Positions 5,201 to 14,425 of a stretch of DNA of 64,000 bases are shown piece by piece. The notes beneath the pieces were generated by a model that saw only the letters and a program-made list of their open reading frames with translations, was not told the DNA's origin and ran no database searches. Both the position numbers and the translations under genes were made by a program. Each line of letters begins with the position of its first letter. Position 1 is the first letter of the stretch. This DNA comes from Candidatus Woesearchaeota archaeon (GTDB lineage Archaea > Nanobdellota > Nanobdellia > Woesearchaeales > ARS49), in NCBI GenBank assembly GCA_003599055.1, contig QZIM01000002.1:517-64516 (forward strand), read 5' to 3'.

Positions 5201-6390
5201 CGTTCGATGTGAATTCGAGTATTATTCAGGATTTGGCGTTTGGCCGCTCGATTCCGCCGGTTCCGGGAATTGACTATCAGGTGATTGTGGGGACAAGGGC
5301 GATTCCGTTCACGGAGCGCTTGTTCGGCGCTGCCGCAAATGACGGTGTTTTGACGCCGGAGAGCGGCTCAACGCTTGGGGATGTTGCGTTCAGGAATGCG
5401 TGTGAGAATTATTATGCGATTAATATCACGCACGTGGACCTTGATGACCATCCGACGGCGATTCGCGTGGTGCAGCGGATTTTGAATAAGGAGCTTGCAA
5501 CAAGTAATCCGAATCTTCCGCTGCTTGGTTTCAACCAGTATTTGCGCGTCCATACTTCGGATTGTTCGCCTGAGGACAGTTATTTCATTATCGGCCGTCC
5601 GATTCCGGAAGAGGCCACGTTTGACCCGCTGCTCTGCGAGTGCGGGAACAGGTATTGTAATGAGGGTGAGACGCCGGAGAATTGTCCGAGTGATTGTGCG
5701 CGTATTTCGCTGCTCACGCAAAGTTGTGTGGGGATTGTGATTGCGGCCTACCCGATTGTTTTGCTGACGGTTTTGCTGGTGGGCTGGCGTTATGCGCTTT
5801 GGGCGGTGCGTAAGCGTCGTGGAGGCATTTCGAAAGTGCTGATGTGGGCGGCAGTGGCAGCGCTCGTGTTGGTTGCGCTGGTGCAGCCGCTTGCGTGTAA
5901 GGGCCCGAATGCAGTGGTGATTGTGGCAGCGCTCGGCGCGCTTTGCCTTGCCGTTTTGGAATTGTTTGCGGAGCGGCCAAGGGAGAACGTTCCCCGCTCG
6001 GTTGACGAGGCGATGGCCGCGCTTCCTCCTGAATCAAAGCGATTACTGAGGCAAAAGTTAGGCAGGCACGCGCCCAAGGAGGTGCCGCCCGCAGGTGAGG
6101 TGCCGGTGCAGGAAAAAATTGTGCTTTTGGCAAAGGACGAGCGGGAAGTGCCGAAAAAGAAAGGCAGGGCGCCTGCGGAAAAACAGGTGGCAAAGGGAAT
6201 GTCCGTCGTGGATGCACTGCGAAATGTCGCGGCGGCAGTGCGAAAAGGGCGGGAGAAGCGTAAAGAACAGCGCCGTTTGGCGCAGATTGCCAAGGACGCT
6301 TCTTTTGGCATTAACCTGGAAAAGATTGACGAAACAATTGATGCCTTGCCTGATGAGGTGAAGCGCAGGCTCAGGCGCAGGAAGAAGTAA
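2254..6390 (+). CDS. giant membrane-anchored surface glycoprotein with alpha/beta-hydrolase (lipase-like) domain
   Basis: 1378 aa with an N-terminal signal anchor and very many N-x-S/T sequons. Three N-terminal repeats carry the NAH...YNV(S/T)VCC signature. An Ala/Gly linker lies at about 3880-4020. Hydrolase block LILVHGL...VLGHSLGG...VGTPNQGSP lies at about 4790-5500. Also a CECGNRYCNEGETPENCPSDC motif, C-terminal TM helices and a K/R/E-rich tail. Confidence 0.75.
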   Translation: MANIRFEVRAEHVLAVFVIVFLLFAAQTLIRGGITGAIVLPPSGNLSCEFIELANASCPGGYTRIFGMSAQENAHVEAQNESNYNVSVCCRDLTGSNALGTGSDGTGVINLSNFTNAHAETPSSGNYLVPVYLNASNASIGCSVNLTGEGSCPADFACMGTLSNETNAHVSNCTGTGRYNVTVCCSIGALITVYLHPNTAPTDNLTANGSINGTLVNGTETSYETQDILYFNASDNDKRFLSILGQFNLSNVDARSLVIEYNQSAVAANLSGVTGAAANHTLFLANNSNNLGVHVCPNAESLADIVPGCTGEVNFTGPFPQSIPPITVSADGTDFRIENILGSGVELIFTLNTSVTNSNLSNSTAQDSVLVDSSMNDSSVSSSSSKVNVTMVNSTNINSTVSFAIEIDTILTTTNASNCRFEQTTVTGSSCLNSIMIAATGTGWEVDPSNVTNSSCSAPCNITDSNVSDSTLSNAVINNSNLTRSNATNSELHNSTVDMSNIVGLIVLDANITNQFCFYGTIIQGVNVFNCPIALSSIYSPPSSGQGGGGSSAGAGAAAGSAAAAAGAAAGAAASGAASAAKASVSVQAAAGLGTLPQCQTVIPKVTSERPEIPPDFVLLGKSDFTCFNNIADFTINVPDQYDDLRAIRCRRGVCAEVETTERAQQQLLCGEQTVREIRDEQIATVRANVSVEIPVTLETDRFFSDANRQTIIGPYELVFDGLLPPRFVGRVSIVQSGVPLPPNPRVVLLLPPVRVALDDVRQGIWFNVSVPSVRGIDVSTLTLATYQRGQWVLLGGEYDPQTDSVKVHIPDAGEFADDGEATFGLLGVVCEACTHAELVQDYTDGSSRRALILVHGLTANSLKFGTLIDDFRLNSQPWQVWTLRYPYNVSIEENARELSDLLTLHSEEFDEVYVLGHSLGGLIAQQALWDSYQRVREGGQVPWLGKVKRAIIVGTPNQGSPTADVYRALLSNLFNLSASASPFDVNSSIIQDLAFGRSIPPVPGIDYQVIVGTRAIPFTERLFGAAANDGVLTPESGSTLGDVAFRNACENYYAINITHVDLDDHPTAIRVVQRILNKELATSNPNLPLLGFNQYLRVHTSDCSPEDSYFIIGRPIPEEATFDPLLCECGNRYCNEGETPENCPSDCARISLLTQSCVGIVIAAYPIVLLTVLLVGWRYALWAVRKRRGGISKVLMWAAVAALVLVALVQPLACKGPNAVVIVAALGALCLAVLELFAERPRENVPRSVDEAMAALPPESKRLLRQKLGRHAPKEVPPAGEVPVQEKIVLLAKDEREVPKKKGRAPAEKQVAKGMSVVDALRNVAAAVRKGREKRKEQRRLAQIAKDASFGINLEKIDETIDALPDEVKRRLRRRKK

Positions 6391-6396
6391 TTTTTT
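6391..6396 (+). terminator. oligo-T tract immediately after the stop codon
   Basis: TTTTTT directly follows TAA at 6388-6390. Archaeal terminators are typically T-runs. Confidence 0.4.
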
Positions 6397-6416
6397 CTTC
6401 AGGTACTTTTAATTCT

Positions 6417-6549
6417 GAGAACTGATAACCGAGAACTGATAACCGAGAACTGATAACCGAGAACTGAAGTCTGATAACTGAAGTCTGACGACTGAAAACC
6501 GATAATCAAGACCTGAAGTATGACAACTGAGAACCGATAACTGACAACC
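6417..6549 (+). repeat. 19 consecutive heptads of consensus GAnAACY (first 49 nt is (GAGAACTGATAACC) x3.5)
   Basis: Read directly: GAGAACT GATAACC x3, then GAGAACT GAAGTCT GATAACT GAAGTCT GACGACT GAAAACC GATAATC AAGACCT GAAGTAT GACAACT GAGAACC GATAACT GACAACC. Lies between convergent genes. Confidence 0.9.
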
Positions 6550-6561
6550 AACTACCCTCTC

Positions 6562-7302
6562 TTACGTGAATATTCCCTTTATCCATCCAAGGAACCGTTC
6601 GAACCAGCTTTTCTTGCGGGGAAGCTCATCGAGCGGCTCGTATGCTCCGACGGGCGGTTTTGTTTTTATCTTGTTCTGGGTGGTGTTAAGGGCAGGCGTG
6701 CGGTTTATCGGGACTAATGGTACGTCCGATACGTTCGCGAAAGTCGTGTTGGCAGGAGCAGGAGTTACGTTTGTTTTTTGTTGTGAGAAGTAGGATGGCT
6801 TGCTTCCTGTGCTGGTGGGGATGATGAATGAGCTGACTTTGAGTGATGCGAGGTTTTCGCGGGCAAGGAACCGCGCGGCTTGGTGGCGGTCTTCAGGGGT
6901 GAGCCCGGTGATGAGGAGTTGTTGTTTGCCGTTGTGTTCGAAAACCTTGATGTATCCTGCGCTTCCGCCGAGGTTGGCAAAGCAGGGGTTTGGGTTTCCT
7001 TCAAGCTGGGCTGCTGCCTTGTTTTCGCACGGACTCCCGATGATAATTGCGTCGTGGAGCGTGATGTCGCCGATTTCGGTGTCAAGGCGCGAGGTCCCGA
7101 CGGCGGTTGTGAGGTTGTAGCGTGTGATTCCGGTGCTGATGACGGTGGCGGAGACAACGTCAAGGGCTGCGCTTTCTTCGCCGACGACGTACACTGCGCT
7201 GAAGTTGCCGTTGCGGGAGAACATGGCGGGGAAGTCGGAGATGGTTGCAGCAAGGGCAGAAGGGGCGAGGATGAGCAAAATGAGGAGGTGTGCGGTTTTC
7301 AT
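6562..7302 (-). CDS. secreted S-layer-domain-like protein
   Basis: Start moved to ATG 7302 (MKTAHLLILLILAPSALA signal peptide). The FPAMF...VYVVGEESAALDVVSA...IIIGSPCENKAAAQL...LITGLTPEDRHQAARFLA pattern is typical of archaeal S-layer-type domains. T/P/N-rich C-terminus. Confidence 0.6.
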   Translation of the reverse strand: MKTAHLLILLILAPSALAATISDFPAMFSRNGNFSAVYVVGEESAALDVVSATVISTGITRYNLTTAVGTSRLDTEIGDITLHDAIIIGSPCENKAAAQLEGNPNPCFANLGGSAGYIKVFEHNGKQQLLITGLTPEDRHQAARFLARENLASLKVSSFIIPTSTGSKPSYFSQQKTNVTPAPANTTFANVSDVPLVPINRTPALNTTQNKIKTKPPVGAYEPLDELPRKKSWFERFLGWIKGIFT

Positions 7303-7390
7303 GGCAAATTTCAGTGTGCGGCAATATTTAAACTCTGCGAGAAAACTTTTAAATAGTACGGTTATTATTTTCGTTATCAGAGTGGGTGAA

Positions 7391-10300
7391 ATGTCAAAAA
7401 GAGGGGGACTTACGTTTACGGCGCTTGCTATCTTGTTAGTTGTTACTGTTTCATTGAGTGTCGTTTCGCAGGAGTCAGGTTCTGAGGCGAATGTTTCCGA
7501 GCTGAATTTTTTTGATTTGAATAGTTCTGATGCGGTTGTTTCGCAGGCAAATGAGTCGCTTGCGGGAAGTGATGCGCCGGTCGGTTCAGATGAGGGGAGC
7601 ACAACTGTTGCGGATAGCGCAAGAGCAGGTGCTGCTGAGGCGAATGGTTCTTCAGGGCTGATTGAGCCGCAGCCCCGCACGCAACATCTGGTCCGCAAAG
7701 TTGTAAGTGATGCGCGTATTCACGCGGGCGCGGTTGCTCAGGTGCAAAGTGAGGGCAGCGCGAGCGTCATTGTTCTTCTCGCCGATGTTGACTCGGGACG
7801 GTCGGCAAGTGCGCAGGGTGTTGCCGTATCGCGTGAGCGTGCAGGGCGTGCAAAGCAGGCGTTCAGGGAGTCACTTGCGGGGAAAGGTATTTCTGATGCA
7901 AGTGTGAGTATCGAGCAGGAGTTGTACACGGTTGGAGCGGTGGCAATGACGGTTGATGAGGCAGGGCTTGCTGCCTTGCAGGAAAACCCGCTTGTTGCGC
8001 GCGTGTTGCCGAACGGGAAGCGCTCAATTAGCCGCGGGACAATCAGTGATGCGGGCATTTCGCTCAATGAGAGTGCGCCCGTGATAAATTCGGATGACGT
8101 TGCGAATTTGACGGTGAACGGCAGCAACCTGACCGGGCACGGCGAGATTGTTTGCGTGATTGATACGGGGATTGACACGTCACACCTCTTGTTTGGTCCG
8201 GTAATTGAGGCAAGTAATATTGTTGGCGGCATTTTCGGAGGGTATGATTTTGTGAATAATGATACAAACGCAAGTGACGACAATAATCACGGGACGCACG
8301 TGTCGGGAATTGCCGTTGGGAATTTCAGCCCGTATTTTGGGACGGCAAGGAACGCGCAGGTGGTTCCGGTGAAGGTGTGTGATGCGGCAGGGAGTTGTCC
8401 TGATTTTGCGATTTTGGCAGGGGTTGACTATTGCAACAATAATATTTCGGGTGTGACGGTGATTTCCGGCTCGCTCGGCGGCGGCGCGCCGCTCAACAGT
8501 TCGACGTGTTCTGGCGACCCGCTGTTTGCTTCGCTTGAAGTGGTGCTTAATGAGTCGCTGAATAACGGTATCATTCCCGTGTTTGCGAGCGGGAATAACG
8601 GGTGCGGTGCGGGGTGTACGACGGGGGTTGACTATCCTGCCTGTTCGCCGCAGGTTATCAGCGTGGGTTCGACGACAAAGGCGGATGCAATCAGCACGTT
8701 CACGGACCGCGGCGGCGACCGGTTTGACATTTACGCGCCCGGGCAGAGTATCACCAGCAGTGTTCCGACATTTAATGCAATCCAGTCGGTGAGCGGGACA
8801 AGCCAGGCAACGCCGCACGTGTCAGGCGTGATTGCGGTCTTGCAGCAAAACGAGCGCTTGCAGGGCAGGGCGCGGCTCAATCTCACAACAATTCGCCGTT
8901 TGCTGCAGGAGACGGGTGTTCCGATTCCGTCCAATGACTCGCGTGTTGATGTGTTGCACGCGATTGCGCGGCTGAACGCGAATTTTTCGCTCAACCAGAC
9001 GGCAAACCTGGTGCGTGATGTCGCGAGCAATTCTTCGATTCAGTTTTATTCCGCGTCTGACTTGGGGCAGGTGCTCGGATGTGTTGAAGTGCGGGAGAAT
9101 TTCGCGGGCGTGAACAGTACGGATTGCCCGCAGTATAACAAGTCTGCGCACGTTGTGCTTGGCGGCGTTACAAATCCTGCGCAGCCATATGTTGACGGCG
9201 CGCCGTGCCCGTTAACGGTGTGCCAGAACGTGACGCTGACAAGCAAAGGGCTTGAGATGGACGTGACGGGCTTTAGTAATTTCACAAGCGTTCCCGGCTG
9301 CGGGATTATGATTAACGAGAGCGCGAGCCTGAATCAGTCAATCAACGCGACCGCAACGTGCATCACGTTCGGCGCGGACAATATTGAGCTTGACTGTAAT
9401 GGTTTCACGATTGGGTACGCGAATGAGTCGCTTGGTTATGGCATCAACGCGACGGGGCGGAAGAATATCACGATTCGCAATTGCGTGGTGAACCAGTCAA
9501 GCCCGATTAATAATGCGCACGCGATTTTCCTGAGCGGGACCAATAACAGTGTTATAACAAATGCGAGCCTGAATGTCACGCAGTCGCCCGGCCAGGCGGT
9601 ATATATTGAGGGGAGTGAAGAGGTTGTTGTTGGGCAGAGCAGGTTTGGAAGTGCGGCGCAGGGGAATGGGGTTTATGTGACCGGCTCGGAAAATGTCACG
9701 GTTCGGGATAATAATTTTATCAGTGCGGGACAGGCAATTGGTTTTGACTCATCGGTGCGCCTTGTTGCGGTGAATAATTCAGCGTCAATTATCGGAAACT
9801 CGATTGCGCTGGCTGCAGGAGGGCTAAATCAGGGCAGTCTGATTGAGAACAATTCAATTTCAGGCAACCAGAACCGTGCATTATTTTTCAGCGGCGGTAA
9901 TGCTGTGGCGAGAAATAATGTTCTTGTCTCACAAAGTTTGGGAGATGCGGTTGAGCTAAATGAGGTTGACGGAAATGTGACGTTGGAGCATAACGTGATT
10001 TATGCGCAAGGAACCGGCCAGGCGCTCTACCTGCGGGACGCAAACAGTTCACGATTTGTGAATAATACGGTGCGCGGTCCGGGCGGCGGCGCACTCTTAA
10101 TTATTGATGGGGCACTTAATGTGTTTGAAAACAGCAGCTTTGCTACTGACTCAGGAACGGCCACGGTGTATTTTTCAACTCTTGCGGGGTCGGTCGTAAA
10201 CAACACGTTCACAAACATCACGCTTGAGTCAAATGGTTCCTATATTCGGTCGGATGCGGCTGGTGCGGGGAACAACTTCACCGCGGCCCGTTTCTTTAAT

Positions 10301-13300
10301 GCGTCCGCGGGAAGCTTGCTCATTCCGAACTTCACGCTGCCGGCGAGTGGAACGATTGGGCAGGAAAACCTGAGTATCAGGGCGAATTTCACGTTTGTAA
10401 ACGCATCGGCGTTGTCCTTCCTCAACGCATCCGCGCAAATCACGTTTGACAATTTGCCTTTTGTGAATCCTCGCCCGCTTGTTGATTTTGATGACGGCGG
10501 CGTGTTTGAGAAGTGCAGTGAGTATCCGGGGCAGTGTGATGAAGTGAGTTATAATGGTAGCACGTTCATATTTAATGTCAGCAGTTTCACAAGTTATGCG
10601 GCATCGGAAACAGTCCTTTCGTGTCCCGAGACAATTGTTGAGGACACGGTACTGAATCAGAGCCTGAATGCAACCGGTTCCTGCATTCACTTCGGCGCGG
10701 ACAATATTGAGCTTGACTGCGCGGGATTCTCGATTGATGCGTCCTTGGCTGATAACGGGACTGCGGTTAATGCAACGGGGCGCCGCAATGTGACTGTGCG
10801 CAACTGTGTGATTGTGCAAAGTAATTCGAGCAATGGTAATGCGCAGGGACTGTTGTTCTCGGACACGAACGACAGTTCTATTGTCAATACCACGATAAAT
10901 ATGACGGGGTTGAGTGCAAACGGGTTCACGTTTGATAACGCGTATGGCAACAGCATCGGGTTGCTCACGCTCTATAGTGTGAACACAGGGGGAGTTATCA
11001 CGTCGAATAGCGTGAATGCAAGCATTGAAAATTCGTTTCTGAATGCATCAGGCGGTGTTGCAATCAATGTTGGCAGCAGTTCGCCGTTTTTCACGATGCG
11101 TAATACGACTGCACGAAGCGGCTCAAATGGTCTTGTGATTACGGGCGGGTCGGAGAACGCGGTCATTGTGAACAATACGCTGGTCGGGTTAAGTGGCGGC
11201 ATAGGCATGCAGCTTGCGGATTCAAACACGCTTCTTGACGGGAATTTGTTCTACGGGGAGTCAGGAAACGCCTTGTTAATTAACAGCGGCTCAAATATCT
11301 CTATGCGAAATAATGTGCTTATTTCAACGGGGGCGGGAAATGTGCTCAGTGCGCAGGGGTCATCCAATTTATTTGTGAATAACACCGTAGTTGCGGACAC
11401 GGGAATCGCCCTGCGACTGCCTGCTACGTTTAATAATTCTTTTGCCAATATGACTGTTCAGGCAAATGGCGGAATTGCGGTCGGTGCAGAGGCAGGTGCG
11501 GAAAACAACTCTTTCACGAACGTGACGCTCCGTGCAAATGGGACTTGGGTTCAATCAGCGACAACTGCGGTAAATCAGTCATTTACACAGGCCCGCTTTG
11601 ACAATTTCAGTGCAGGGAACCTGTTTTTCGACAATTTCACTCTTCCGGGCGATTCTCTCGTCGGCCAATCAAATCTTTCGGTGGGAGCGAACACTACCTT
11701 CTTGAATTCGTCGCAGCTGCCTTTTCTGAACGTGTCCGCCCAAATCACGCTCCGTAGCCTGCCGTTCAATAATCCGCTCCCGCTCGTTGATGAAAACGAC
11801 ACAGGTGTCTTCTTGCCGTGTGACTCGTCAAGGTGCACGGTTATTTCAAGCGGTGCGGGAATCATTGTCTTTAATGTCACCGGTTTCACGAGTTACGCCG
11901 CAAGCGAGGGTGGGCTCGTGACGATTGTAAAAGAAGACAGCAGCGACCCGGTGAAGGCGGGCGCGCTGCTCAACTACACGCTCACGATTAATTCTACGCA
12001 AGGCAACCAATCGAATGCAACCGTGACCGAGTTCTACCCTGCGGAAGTGTCTTTTGTCTCCGCAAGTCCTGCACCGACAAGCGGCAATAACACGTTTTCA
12101 CTCGGAACGCTTGTTGAGGGTGTTGCGACAACAATTAACATCACGGTGCGCGTAGGCTACAGTGTTGCAAACGGAACCATTCTCAACAACACTGCGAACG
12201 TGTCTTTTGTGAATTCATCGGGAACAAACTTCTCTGCGGTTGTTTCCGAGTTCACAACAGTGCTCAATGAGTTTGCGAATGTTTCCGTTACAAAAGACGA
12301 CGTGCCTGACCCTGTTCCAAGAGGCGGAACGCTGAATTATACGGTTCTGCTCGTCAATAACGGCAATGTGAACGCATCGAACATTACGGTGGTTGAGTCG
12401 TACCCTGAGAATGTGTCTTTTGTGAGCTCAACGCCTGCGCCAACGAGCGGGAACAACACGTTTGTCATAGCGGAACTCGCGCCAAATGAGAATACGACGG
12501 TTAACATCACGCTTGCGGTGGGGACGGGTATTGGCAACGGGTCTGTCCTCAATAATTCTGTTTTGGTCACGTACGTGAACCAATCGGGCGATAACGCAAC
12601 CGCTCTTGCCGCCGCCCAAACAACGGTCCTTGGCGCGGCAAATGTTACGATAGCAAAGTCTGATGTGCCTGACCCGGTCTTGCAGGGCGAGCAGCTCAGC
12701 TATCAGTTGGTCGTGAACAATACGGGCGATGATGTTGCGGTTAATGTCACAATCACGGAAACCTATCCGCCGAACGTGTCGTTTGTCACAAGCAGTCCTC
12801 TTCCTGACACGGGCAACAATACGTTTATCGTCGGCAACTTGTCTCCGGGACAAACTGCGACAGTGAACATCACGCTGCTTGTGGGTCCTGCAGTAACGAA
12901 CGGCACGGTTCTCAATAATTCGGCAAATGCGTCGTGGGAGAACCGTACGGGCGATGTGGGTTCGGTCATTGCAAGTGAGTTGACAACCGTGCTCGGCCGG
13001 GCGAACCTTTCAACGAATAAGACTGCGAATGAGTCGTTTGTCATTCGCGGGAACACGGTGAATTTCACGATTGTCATCAATAATTCCGGTGATGACACGG
13101 CATTCAACCTGACGGTCACGGAAATTTATCCTGTGCAGGGGAGTTTTGTGTCGGCAAGTCCTGCTCCTTCGGCCGGAAATGCAACGTTCTCTTTGGGTGG
13201 CCTCGAGCCAAACGGCAGCGTAGTTGTTGAGATTTCGCTCAACCTGACGGGCGCAAACGGCACGCAGGTGCAAAACAGTTACAACGTGACGTTCCAGCGC

Positions 13301-14425
13301 AGAAATGGTTCAACAGTCAATCTCACAAATGCGTCAAGCGTGACGCTCCTGGGCTTCCCTGTTGTTGCAGTGGCAAAGACGGACAGCGCAGACCCGACGT
13401 CTGCGGGTGCAACGCTCAGATACGCGGTAACGGTGACAAATAACGGTGACGATATCGCGTACAACGTGACCGTGGTTGAAGGGTACCCGCTTAACGTGAC
13501 GCTGAACGGGACTGAGCCGAATGCGACAAGCGGGAATGACACGTTTGCTATCGGCAACCTGTTGCCGGGGCAGAGCTTCACAATGAATATTTCGGTAAAT
13601 GTGAGCAGTGCGATGGCGCTCGGTTCACTCAATAATTCAGTCAACGTTACGTTTGCGAATGCAAGCGGGGTCAATTTGACGCAAGCGGCATCGCAAATAA
13701 CTGCGGTGAGCCCGCCTGCGGCGCCGTTCGTTCAGGGTGGCGGGGGCGGTGGTGGCGGAGGTGCATCGGGTGTTTCGACAACGCAGTCAATGACGGGTTC
13801 AAGCTGGAGTTCAGCGTACCTGCGCGCGGGCGATAAGGTGAAGTTCACGGCAAATGATGCGATTGAGCACACGATGACGGTGCTTACGGTGCTCACGGAC
13901 CGCGTGACAATTCGGGTCGCAAGCGTTCCGCAGGAATTCACAATTAAAAAAGGAGTTGTGCAGGCAGTTGACGTGACGGGCGATGGTAAGGATGATGTGC
14001 GCATTTCCGTTGTAGACATTGCGTACAGTAAGGCGCTTTTCCATTTGGAGAAGGCCGCGTTCTCGCCGGCAGTTGTGCGCGATGCAGTTCCTGCTCCTGT
14101 GCCAAGCCCTGCGCCGGCGGTAGGGCAAAAAGAGGAAGCTCCTTTGGTTCAGCCGGCCCCGCAGGAGCGGGAGGAGTTTACCGCGGTTGTTCCTCAAGGG
14201 GAGAGTGAGGGGTCAGGCGGCATAGGTAAGTGGGTTGTGTCCGCAATTGTTGTTCTTGCAATTGCAGGGGTTCTTGTGGCTGCAGTCCGGTTGAGAAAGC
14301 CAAAAGAGCCGGATGCGCTTGCAAGTGCGCAGGAGATTGAGGCAGCGTTCAGGGATATGAAGTCCGGTATGAAAGAGAGTATGCAGCTTGTGCGCAAGGC
14401 AGAGCGGTCGGAAAGGAAGAAGTAA
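7391..14425 (+). CDS. giant surface protein: subtilisin-like protease + 2 parallel beta-helix cassettes + 5 DUF11-like repeats + C-terminal anchor module
   Basis: Start set at ATG 7391 (MSKRGGLTFTALAILLVV), because the upstream ORF part overlaps the divergent gene. S8 triad motifs: VCVIDTGIDTSH (about 8160), NNHGTHVSGIA (about 8290), SGTSQATPHVSGV (about 8795). Beta-helix cassettes lie at about 9290-10608 and 10609-11908. Five repeats of about 120 aa (..LNYT..N.G...A.NVTV.E.YP..VSFVS.SPAPTSGNNTF) lie at about 11909-13715. Then a Gly9 run, a roughly 85-aa domain, a P/A-rich linker, a TM helix and a basic tail. Confidence 0.85.
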   Translation: MSKRGGLTFTALAILLVVTVSLSVVSQESGSEANVSELNFFDLNSSDAVVSQANESLAGSDAPVGSDEGSTTVADSARAGAAEANGSSGLIEPQPRTQHLVRKVVSDARIHAGAVAQVQSEGSASVIVLLADVDSGRSASAQGVAVSRERAGRAKQAFRESLAGKGISDASVSIEQELYTVGAVAMTVDEAGLAALQENPLVARVLPNGKRSISRGTISDAGISLNESAPVINSDDVANLTVNGSNLTGHGEIVCVIDTGIDTSHLLFGPVIEASNIVGGIFGGYDFVNNDTNASDDNNHGTHVSGIAVGNFSPYFGTARNAQVVPVKVCDAAGSCPDFAILAGVDYCNNNISGVTVISGSLGGGAPLNSSTCSGDPLFASLEVVLNESLNNGIIPVFASGNNGCGAGCTTGVDYPACSPQVISVGSTTKADAISTFTDRGGDRFDIYAPGQSITSSVPTFNAIQSVSGTSQATPHVSGVIAVLQQNERLQGRARLNLTTIRRLLQETGVPIPSNDSRVDVLHAIARLNANFSLNQTANLVRDVASNSSIQFYSASDLGQVLGCVEVRENFAGVNSTDCPQYNKSAHVVLGGVTNPAQPYVDGAPCPLTVCQNVTLTSKGLEMDVTGFSNFTSVPGCGIMINESASLNQSINATATCITFGADNIELDCNGFTIGYANESLGYGINATGRKNITIRNCVVNQSSPINNAHAIFLSGTNNSVITNASLNVTQSPGQAVYIEGSEEVVVGQSRFGSAAQGNGVYVTGSENVTVRDNNFISAGQAIGFDSSVRLVAVNNSASIIGNSIALAAGGLNQGSLIENNSISGNQNRALFFSGGNAVARNNVLVSQSLGDAVELNEVDGNVTLEHNVIYAQGTGQALYLRDANSSRFVNNTVRGPGGGALLIIDGALNVFENSSFATDSGTATVYFSTLAGSVVNNTFTNITLESNGSYIRSDAAGAGNNFTAARFFNASAGSLLIPNFTLPASGTIGQENLSIRANFTFVNASALSFLNASAQITFDNLPFVNPRPLVDFDDGGVFEKCSEYPGQCDEVSYNGSTFIFNVSSFTSYAASETVLSCPETIVEDTVLNQSLNATGSCIHFGADNIELDCAGFSIDASLADNGTAVNATGRRNVTVRNCVIVQSNSSNGNAQGLLFSDTNDSSIVNTTINMTGLSANGFTFDNAYGNSIGLLTLYSVNTGGVITSNSVNASIENSFLNASGGVAINVGSSSPFFTMRNTTARSGSNGLVITGGSENAVIVNNTLVGLSGGIGMQLADSNTLLDGNLFYGESGNALLINSGSNISMRNNVLISTGAGNVLSAQGSSNLFVNNTVVADTGIALRLPATFNNSFANMTVQANGGIAVGAEAGAENNSFTNVTLRANGTWVQSATTAVNQSFTQARFDNFSAGNLFFDNFTLPGDSLVGQSNLSVGANTTFLNSSQLPFLNVSAQITLRSLPFNNPLPLVDENDTGVFLPCDSSRCTVISSGAGIIVFNVTGFTSYAASEGGLVTIVKEDSSDPVKAGALLNYTLTINSTQGNQSNATVTEFYPAEVSFVSASPAPTSGNNTFSLGTLVEGVATTINITVRVGYSVANGTILNNTANVSFVNSSGTNFSAVVSEFTTVLNEFANVSVTKDDVPDPVPRGGTLNYTVLLVNNGNVNASNITVVESYPENVSFVSSTPAPTSGNNTFVIAELAPNENTTVNITLAVGTGIGNGSVLNNSVLVTYVNQSGDNATALAAAQTTVLGAANVTIAKSDVPDPVLQGEQLSYQLVVNNTGDDVAVNVTITETYPPNVSFVTSSPLPDTGNNTFIVGNLSPGQTATVNITLLVGPAVTNGTVLNNSANASWENRTGDVGSVIASELTTVLGRANLSTNKTANESFVIRGNTVNFTIVINNSGDDTAFNLTVTEIYPVQGSFVSASPAPSAGNATFSLGGLEPNGSVVVEISLNLTGANGTQVQNSYNVTFQRRNGSTVNLTNASSVTLLGFPVVAVAKTDSADPTSAGATLRYAVTVTNNGDDIAYNVTVVEGYPLNVTLNGTEPNATSGNDTFAIGNLLPGQSFTMNISVNVSSAMALGSLNNSVNVTFANASGVNLTQAASQITAVSPPAAPFVQGGGGGGGGGASGVSTTQSMTGSSWSSAYLRAGDKVKFTANDAIEHTMTVLTVLTDRVTIRVASVPQEFTIKKGVVQAVDVTGDGKDDVRISVVDIAYSKALFHLEKAAFSPAVVRDAVPAPVPSPAPAVGQKEEAPLVQPAPQEREEFTAVVPQGESEGSGGIGKWVVSAIVVLAIAGVLVAAVRLRKPKEPDALASAQEIEAAFRDMKSGMKESMQLVRKAERSERKK

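Follow-up and report, generated by a model that had tools for sequence, protein, structure and literature searches.

An array of seven-base repeats between two convergent genes of a Woesearchaeota genome belongs to a family of about 60–100 such arrays in the spacers of that genome. The orientation of these arrays follows strand composition, whichever way the genes on either side run. Since polarity follows strand asymmetry rather than genes, the array is a DNA-level element and not a terminator of its two neighbours. The reading that we favour, and to which we give roughly even chances, is that the array is one member of a genome-wide, strand-polar heptad satellite family that has grown by slippage and evolves in concert.

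The array and its convergent neighbours

The window, meaning the whole 64,000-nt stretch of DNA that was analysed (C1:517–64516), comes from a 1.15-Mb genome in 26 contigs that is 88.7% complete (the host genome, G000). The SSU rRNA of this genome fits the archaeal model (1408 bits) better than the bacterial one (1084 bits). Positions 6417–6549 of the window hold 133 nt, or 19 heptads, in a single unbroken 7-nt register. Self-identity at lags 7 and 14 is 0.62 and 0.72, far above the values from 5000 shuffles (0.28 ± 0.04, maximum 0.42), which bears out the strict 7-nt periodicity described in an earlier note made from the sequence. That note had counted 19 uninterrupted GAnAACY heptads; the 19 units in register stand, but the exact motif is matched by 13 of them (five GATAACY and eight others). 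The remaining six (GAAGTCT twice, GACGACT, GATAATC, AAGACCT and GAAGTAT) differ at 1–3 positions, and GAnAACY is thus a consensus rather than a strict pattern at this locus.

TRF reports GAGAACTGATAACC repeated 3.6 times at 6417–6467 with 100% identity (score 102), along with weaker 28- and 49-nt periods. This agrees with the perfect 14-mer, repeated 3.5 times, that had been described for the first 49 nt, and this segment (6417–6465) looks like a recent slippage expansion of two heptads. A TGA-TAA pair occurs in all three plus-strand frames of the same 49 nt and the complement is free of stop codons there, again as had been described; over the whole array, the plus-strand frames hold 5, 7 and 6 stops and the complement holds one. 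The placement between convergent genes was likewise correctly recognized, with stops at 6390 (plus strand) and 6562 (minus strand). The array takes up ~80% of the 171-nt spacer between these genes, beginning 26 nt after the stop of the plus-strand gene, and the stop of the S-layer-like gene lies 12 nt from position 6549 and 5 nt past position 6556 (Table 1).

Table 1. Array locus and flanking genes, in window coordinates
Feature	Position	Strand	Basis and remarks
Upstream convergent gene, 1378 aa	2254..6390	+	ORF list; weak alpha/beta-hydrolase matches (Pfam); stop TAA 6388–6390
T-rich tract (T6, then CTT), directly after the plus-strand gene stop, outside the repeat	6391..6399	+	Read from sequence
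Degenerate lead heptad TAATTCT	6410..6416	+	Read from sequence
Perfect 14-mer (GAGAACT + GATAACC) x3.5	6417..6465	+	TRF, 100% identity
Twelve more heptads, register kept: six exact GAnAACY, six degenerate	6466..6549	+	Heptad listing
Single A/C-only unit AACTACC, the 3′ module (AACYACM), register continued	6550..6556	+	Heptad listing
Downstream convergent S-layer-like gene, 246 aa, signal peptide	6562..7302	-	Translation; Pfam PF05124 S_layer_C, 30.9 bits, E 2.5e-7, above cut-off; stop TAA 6564–6562
Giant secreted subtilase / DUF11 protein gene, divergent from the S-layer-like gene, outside the repeat	7391..14425	+	Pfam, sequence

Two of the listed gene starts required correction. The minus-strand ORF listed as 6562–7698, with a TTG start, is an over-extension of the S-layer-like gene, which really starts at the ATG at 7302. 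The subtilase / DUF11 gene starts at the ATG at 7391, where a signal peptide follows, and not at the GTG at 7124; the ORF that begins at this GTG overlaps, over 7124–7390, the real minus-strand S-layer-like gene. Automatic ORF lists are misleading at 7124–7390 because the strong skew leaves antisense frames open.

The earlier note had proposed, among other candidates, that the array is a terminator or 3′-UTR element. This proposal is not supported: neither strand folds, the one T-run (T6) lies outside the array, and array orientation is unrelated to neighbouring genes genome-wide. DNA folding energies of the two strands are -2.1 and -2.2 kcal/mol (z about +0.5), and RNA folding z-scores are +1.33 for the plus strand, which is less structured than its shuffles, and -0.37 for the minus strand, which is no better than its shuffles. 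The plus-strand RNA is unstructured and G-poor. An intrinsic terminator was rejected in particular, as the array has neither a G+C-rich hairpin with a U-run nor an oligo-T of at least five (the longest T-run in the complement is T4). The T6 tract at 6391–6399 is presumably the archaeal oligo-T terminator of the plus-strand gene. A promoter and terminator consensus scan of the spacer (6391–6561) returned nothing, and an Rfam search of 5800–7600 at a permissive E-value gave no match in the array and two chance-level matches outside it. The 28-nt flank pattern of the array had no match among metagenome contigs, and an exact-protein look-up returned no record.

A family of arrays whose orientation follows strand composition

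A heptad scan of the host genome identified 64 arrays of at least five units, compared with 1–6 in reversed or shuffled genomes, and an independent TRF run identified 69 intergenic arrays whose period is divisible by 7. Sixty-one of the 64 arrays are intergenic according to a self-trained gene caller, a crude ORF scorer that miscalled the locus at 6417–6549 itself. The earlier note had raised the possibility that GAnAACY arrays are scattered at random; a genome-wide search found them to be far from random, being both intergenic and strand-polar. Among spacers of at least 100 nt, arrays are present in 19% of tandem, 12% of convergent and 9% of divergent ones, and 10 arrays lie between divergent promoters. 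Array length ranges from 5 to 19 units and density is uneven, from no arrays in a 67-kb contig to four in a 14-kb contig. GATAACT is the commonest unit (79 of 476).

The arrays have a common layout, in which a T-rich lead ending in TCT precedes a GAnAACY module of 4–14 units, followed in about half of the arrays by an AACYACM module of 1–14 units. Beyond the last module, some arrays have a TATA-like box and, 30–60 nt or so further on, a same-strand gene; in the others an opposite-strand gene ends there, its stop codon often touching the last unit. These oriented layouts indicate that the arrays occupy the spacer between functional signals. An 'ageing gradient', by which the A/C-only 3′ module would turn into GAnAACY by transitions, was rejected, since it takes a transversion plus a register shift to get from one module to the other. 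Two perfect, homogeneous arrays were also observed, (ACTGACC)12 at C16:5014–5099 and (ACAAACT)13.6 at C24:2292–2386.

Array flanks are unique except at 4–5 loci that share a paralogous small RHH-gene module, and the arrays are therefore not borne on a larger mobile element. The paralogous proteins of this module are 66–72 aa long, look like RHH proteins and have a GRPKK (AT-hook-like) tail (C22:312–512, C3:45548–45757, C20:8333–8542 and C21:4428–4646). Each RHH-like gene has its own palindrome in a conserved ~130-nt promoter region and is divergent from a heptad array, which begins ~20 nt after a TATA-like element.

For 62 of the 64 arrays, the G-rich strand is the one with the GAnAACY reading, in agreement with the GC skew of the surrounding ±5 kb (p = 2e-16). 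Of the other two, one is a false positive inside a gene and one is the inverted member of a head-to-head pair. This pair, at C16:4940–5107, is the only true polarity exception besides C9:6993. Array direction is constant within each contig, and neighbouring genes lie on the same and the opposite strand to the array in ratios of 28:31 upstream and 26:33 downstream. A consensus-free test based on TRF classed 56 arrays as anti-skew and 13 as pro-skew, and most of these 13 have a GC skew near 0 and an AT skew that is anti-skew. The arrays themselves have a GC skew of about -0.27 and an AT skew of about +0.46; read on the G-rich strand, the arrays are thus A/C-rich anti-skew islands.

The background against which these islands stand is a strand asymmetry that is extreme and independent of gene strand. 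Contigs have GC skews of ±0.16–0.30 with AT skews of opposite sign, and every contig is single-signed; on the G-rich strand, GC skew is about +0.2 and AT skew about -0.1. At third codon positions, G-rich-strand genes have a GC skew of +0.40 and those of the opposite strand one of -0.53. None of the 26 contigs contains a skew switch, which could hide in gaps, the genome being in 26 contigs, and skew is consequently the one observation that links the arrays to replication. An assignment of the G-rich strand as the leading strand by gene orientation was dropped, as the signals are mixed: the C-rich strand carries the 16S rRNA gene and 54% of coding bases, and the G-rich strand carries the L14 gene (a marker of the ribosomal-protein cluster). 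Islands of 4–8 kb with near-zero GC skew occur within skewed contigs (C4:20001–28000, C11:8001–12000, C14:12001–16000 and C2:60001–64000) and may be recently acquired DNA. GC skew is near zero in the rRNA region (C2:8001–16000) as well.

A whole-chromosome G/C disparity between strands has been described for the CPR Microgenomates Ch65 and its relatives (PMC7143001). As in our host, the disparity in Ch65 is very strong whichever strand a gene lies on, the rRNA is encoded on the C-rich strand and the trait is confined to a lineage (PMC7143001). Ch65, however, is a closed bacterial genome without a skew switch in which no heptad arrays are reported (PMC7143001), whereas our host is archaeal and in 26 contigs.

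We also considered whether the arrays are the visible part of a dispersed polar motif. With arrays masked, the words AACTGA, GATAAC, ACTGAT and related ones have a log2 excess bias of about 0, and such a motif is ruled out, since core hexamers outside arrays have no skew beyond composition. KOPS and Chi are replication-oriented skewed motifs that occur as single dispersed octamers. The arrays resemble them in that orientation follows GC skew almost perfectly; KOPS and Chi, though, are common inside genes and over-represented beyond base composition, whereas the signal in this genome is confined to intergenic tandem arrays. AAGG-containing hexamers, counted with arrays masked, have a G-rich-strand bias far above the base-composition prediction (CTAAGG 140 versus 15; TAAGGG 367 versus 25).

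Related repeats in sister genomes, bacteria and other systems

A four-heptad pattern has 119 matches in the host genome and none in two other genomes of its genus. The pattern was also absent from 22 other genomes of the family and, allowing up to one mismatch, from 400 other genomes of the phylum (DPANN). The sister species G001 instead has a family of its own, CCAAnAG, with 38 matches; its reading lies on the G-rich strand at each of the 9 loci checked, and 2 of 48 adjacent units are identical. When the units are rotated, the core of the host family is ACYGAna and that of the sister family GCYAAna; the two families share their layout and variable positions, two positions separate the cores, and neither core occurs in the species that carries the other. 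From this sequence comparison, the swap of cores appears to be concerted evolution. Sister-species loci (L013–L024 and L271–L274) combine CCAAnAG with CCTWCRY-type and ACAAACT-type heptads that are anti-skew and constant in strand within each contig.

The third genome, G002, has A/C-rich heptads of yet another type that are anti-skew too, and strong skew and dense anti-skew heptads thus occur together in G000, G001 and G002. Samples of 20–80 kb from 13 other genomes of the family have no strong skew (it is moderate in G012 and G013) and few heptad arrays. Conservation of the locus at 6417–6549, a lack of which the earlier note had counted towards refutation, was not found: in G002, the nearest relative with an ortholog of the 1378-aa gene (66% identity), no array follows the stop of that ortholog. 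The match to this gene in G001 covers the N-terminal part, residues 15–538.

Cyanobacterial STRR heptamers are known heptanucleotide repeats. Among the long SSRs of prokaryotes, heptanucleotides were found to outnumber every other class (Mrazek and co-workers 2007, as summarised in PMC4679880). The arrays of our host share with long SSRs and STRR heptamers the period of 7, a non-coding bias that follows from 7 not being a multiple of 3, polymerase slippage as the proposed origin and lineage-specific units. Unlike the host arrays, those repeats are described as near-perfect, and the descriptions consulted mention no replication-strand polarity and no conserved core with variable spacer positions.

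A closer counterpart is provided by the TAACTGA direct repeats of marine Beggiatoaceae, Cyanobacteria and Bacteroidetes, whose function is unknown and for which a translational role has been proposed (MacGregor 2015, PMC4679880). That paper mentions no archaeon. It reports for a small sample from Microcystis that repeat sets lying between stop codons are all in one chromosomal orientation, and for Microcystis it also reports arrangements other than abutting a start codon (PMC4679880). GATAACT is TAACTGA rotated, and in both systems single-base variants are interleaved. Both are mainly intergenic, with stops in all three frames of the forward strand and a translatable reverse strand, have no predicted secondary structure, and have a strain-specific distribution with indels in 7-nt steps. 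On these sequence features, the TAACTGA repeats are probably the closest known relatives of the array at 6417–6549, which would be an archaeal, degenerate relative of them.

Several features set the two systems apart. The TAACTGA hosts are bacterial and ours is archaeal. Bacterial arrays are homogeneous, with 76% identical adjacent units, whereas those of our host are heterogeneous (19 of 279, or 7%). The Beggiatoaceae repeats abut start codons; the host arrays do not, the array at 6417–6549 facing a stop codon. Twenty-six of 59 host arrays face a same-strand gene; the median distance is ~70 nt, and a TATA-like box usually separates the two. Unlike that of the TAACTGA repeats, host array orientation follows strand skew and not the downstream gene, and the second, A/C-only module and a core that differs between congeneric species likewise distinguish the host arrays.

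Five exact GAnAACY units are widespread in bacterial genome and metagenome contigs (Acidobacteriota, Planctomycetota, Bacteroidota and Cyanobacteria). In a bacterial and metagenome sample, a same-strand ORF starts within 80 nt after the array in 96 of 177 testable arrays (median 10.5 nt). Such five-unit arrays are common in Acidobacteriota, Planctomycetota, Thermoanaerobaculia and others (loci L032–L260), typically ending 0–10 nt before a start codon, and their host range exceeds the Beggiatoaceae, Cyanobacteria and Bacteroidetes range of 2015. On a complete Flavobacterium chromosome, arrays lie on both strands with no replichore pattern.

The Borg elements of Methanoperedens offer a further comparison: they carry tandem repeats that are A-enriched on one defined strand per replichore, and their authors proposed that this A-rich character constrains how the repeats form (PMC9879509). 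Borg repeats and the host arrays are alike in being archaeal, genome-specific, fast-evolving and A-enriched on one strand (PMC9879509). Borg units, unlike those of the host arrays, are perfect, come in many lengths and lie in ORFs in about half of cases (PMC9879509). Moreover, gene and replication direction are inseparable in Borgs because all genes lie on one strand per replichore (PMC9879509), whereas our host has genes on both strands and arrays that follow the strand and not the genes.

Origin and possible roles of the arrays

Expansions in multiples of 7 are seen in the perfect 14-mer (x3.5) at 6417, in the perfect 7-mer arrays (ACTGACC)12 and (ACAAACT)13.6 and in a 35-mer repeated 2.1 times at 94% identity, and they show recent growth in such steps. 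At four paralogous loci with flanks that are 90–95% identical, arrays begin alike and then differ in unit number and content. In the GAnAACY module, conservation is 95% at A2, 90% at A5, 98% at C6 and 68% at A4, with n3 free and position 7 being T (65%) or C (30%); these units were chosen as starting with G, all scored positions were weighted equally in detection, and consensus-based detection inflates apparent core conservation somewhat. The core ACYGA is 90–100% conserved at 7-nt spacing, and A2, A5 and C6 are kept at 90–98% on a strand that is under strong C-to-T pressure. Register survives degenerate units in 7 of 7 cases.

As a satellite family, the arrays would originate and lengthen through slippage during replication or through duplication, in spacer DNA free of constraint, with growth filling the spacer up to the nearest promoter, terminator or stop codon, and would evolve in concert across loci in the fashion of satellites. 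A single orientation would be kept if the process that generates or tolerates arrays were tied to the strand-asymmetric replication behind the skew, possibly as lagging-strand-specific slippage or as selection against inversions between oppositely oriented copies. The array at 6417–6549 would then be spacer DNA and a passive passenger in any read-through transcript, rather than a dedicated terminator or regulator of its neighbours. Hairpin asymmetry was rejected as a cause of polarity or of orientation-dependent slippage, as both DNA strands fold equally poorly (~-2 kcal/mol). Unit heterogeneity speaks against a satellite: a young slippage satellite is expected to be homogeneous, and adjacent identity is 7%. 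A core that is conserved despite this heterogeneity looks like selection on the core motif or a sequence-specific generator, and the two-position core swap within an unchanged layout in the sister species would fit co-evolution with a trans-acting factor.

These features make a selected polar array a serious rival, because the core is both conserved and swapped between species, and we regard this rival as possible though doubtful. ACYGA every 7 nt would here be a phased site for a species-specific factor binding single- or double-stranded DNA, with possible roles in lagging-strand handling, fork direction or chromosome organisation, and slippage would supply raw material. Position-specific conservation (C6 98%, A2 95% and A5 90% against A4 68% and a free n3) argues for such a site, with the reservation that consensus detection inflates these values somewhat. 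So do the differences between neighbouring units in 93% of cases, a register held across degenerate units, a polarity that goes with skew in 62 of 64 arrays, and a sister species with the same layout and another, mutually exclusive core. TRAP and HutP are ring or filament proteins that read short cores with fixed spacers on RNA and offer a precedent. No candidate binding protein was identified, however; an RHH gene adjoins just 4–5 arrays. The uneven spread over contigs and the variation in unit number from 5 to 19 count against such a site. The missing array at the orthologous G002 locus and the core hexamers outside arrays, which unlike KOPS or Chi have no strand bias beyond composition, also weigh against it. 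Among the candidates offered in the earlier note, the satellite and the protein-binding array both survive and the terminator or 3′-UTR element is not supported; slippage is supported by the perfect 14-mer, 7-mer and 35-mer expansions, and constraint by an ACYGA core that is conserved though neighbouring units differ.

The remaining readings, which place the arrays at transcript ends, in leaders or on mobile elements, are disfavoured. As a transcript-level element, the array would be a 3′-UTR or termination platform (for example, unstructured RNA for aCPSF1/FttA loading) or a small regulatory RNA. In keeping with this, a stop codon is found within 45 nt of 46 of the 61 intergenic arrays, 31 of which abut the stop of a C-rich-strand gene, the plus-strand RNA is unstructured and G-poor, and a TATA-like element ~20 nt before the first heptad is common to five or six loci. 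Stop adjacency of 75% is nevertheless what random placement among spacer types would give, and arrays follow genes in both orientations, which would yield very different RNAs (A/C-rich and G/U-rich), or sit between divergent promoters (10 cases). There is no hairpin or T-run inside arrays and orientation tracks skew, not genes, so that we consider a transcript-level role improbable. A T5 run within 80 nt is found in just 2 of the 31 genes with abutting arrays, versus 20% of other genes on the same strand, which would also favour a transcript-level role; T5-run statistics after stop codons were set aside as uninformative, since T-runs occur in too few genes (20–35%).

Replication-relative polarity is a hallmark of IS200/IS605-type ssDNA transposition, and a miniature mobile element spread by an ssDNA (HUH/Y1) transposase or by a reverse transcriptase could give replication-polar insertions in either case. 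The many dispersed copies of the family would suit such an element, but the host genome (88.7% complete) has no Pfam match to Y1_Tnp or RVT_1, flanks are unique apart from the one paralogous gene module, terminal hairpins are absent, and array lengths are continuous multiples of 7; a mobile origin is accordingly hard to credit. We think it just as far-fetched that the arrays are horizontally acquired bacterial leaders of the TAACTGA type, serving translation initiation or regulator binding upstream of start codons, the leader role just upstream of start codons having been proposed for Beggiatoaceae (PMC4679880). That GATAACT, a rotation of TAACTGA, is the commonest unit would speak for a leader, as would the start-proximal placement of 96 of 177 bacterial and metagenome arrays, which agrees with the published account (PMC4679880), and one host array (C5:52728) ends 3 nt before an ATG. 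The positions of the host arrays nevertheless largely refute this reading: the median distance to a start is ~70 nt, and the start mostly lies beyond a TATA-like box, as would suit leaderless mRNAs; more than half of the arrays face the 3′ end of a gene. The differing cores of the sister species, moreover, favour evolution within the lineage over import.

It would go beyond the satellite reading to propose a mechanistic link between the arrays and replication, which in this Woesearchaeota genus would be unusual and strongly strand-asymmetric; we hold this proposal to be unlikely, and it could take two forms. The phased ACYGA sites may be read on one strand by a species-specific factor, as an archaeal polar chromosome signal. 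Alternatively, the arrays may have been left behind by lagging-strand events (for example, re-priming or flap re-ligation in primer-length units), and such an origin, if true, would account for the period of 7, for the strictness of the polarity and for a core that changed in concert between sister species. Were either form to hold, the arrays would be replication-oriented intergenic repeats of a sort so far undescribed in archaea.

Heptanucleotide repeats, including TAACTGA, have been known in bacteria since 2007–2015, with a translational leader as the leading idea. The present genome separates variables that are otherwise confounded, as it has genes on both strands and apparently leaderless mRNAs, yet a single array polarity. 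This single polarity tracks an extreme strand asymmetry and therefore points to a DNA-level, replication-linked origin or role. The A-rich, one-strand bias of Borg-type repeats may also stem from strand-specific replication rather than from transcription. A core that has been swapped while the layout stayed unchanged provides a tractable system in which molecular drive and co-evolution with a binding factor could be told apart in prokaryotic satellites. The arrays are also useful as strand and orientation markers for scaffolding these MAGs, and are likely sites of assembly breaks.
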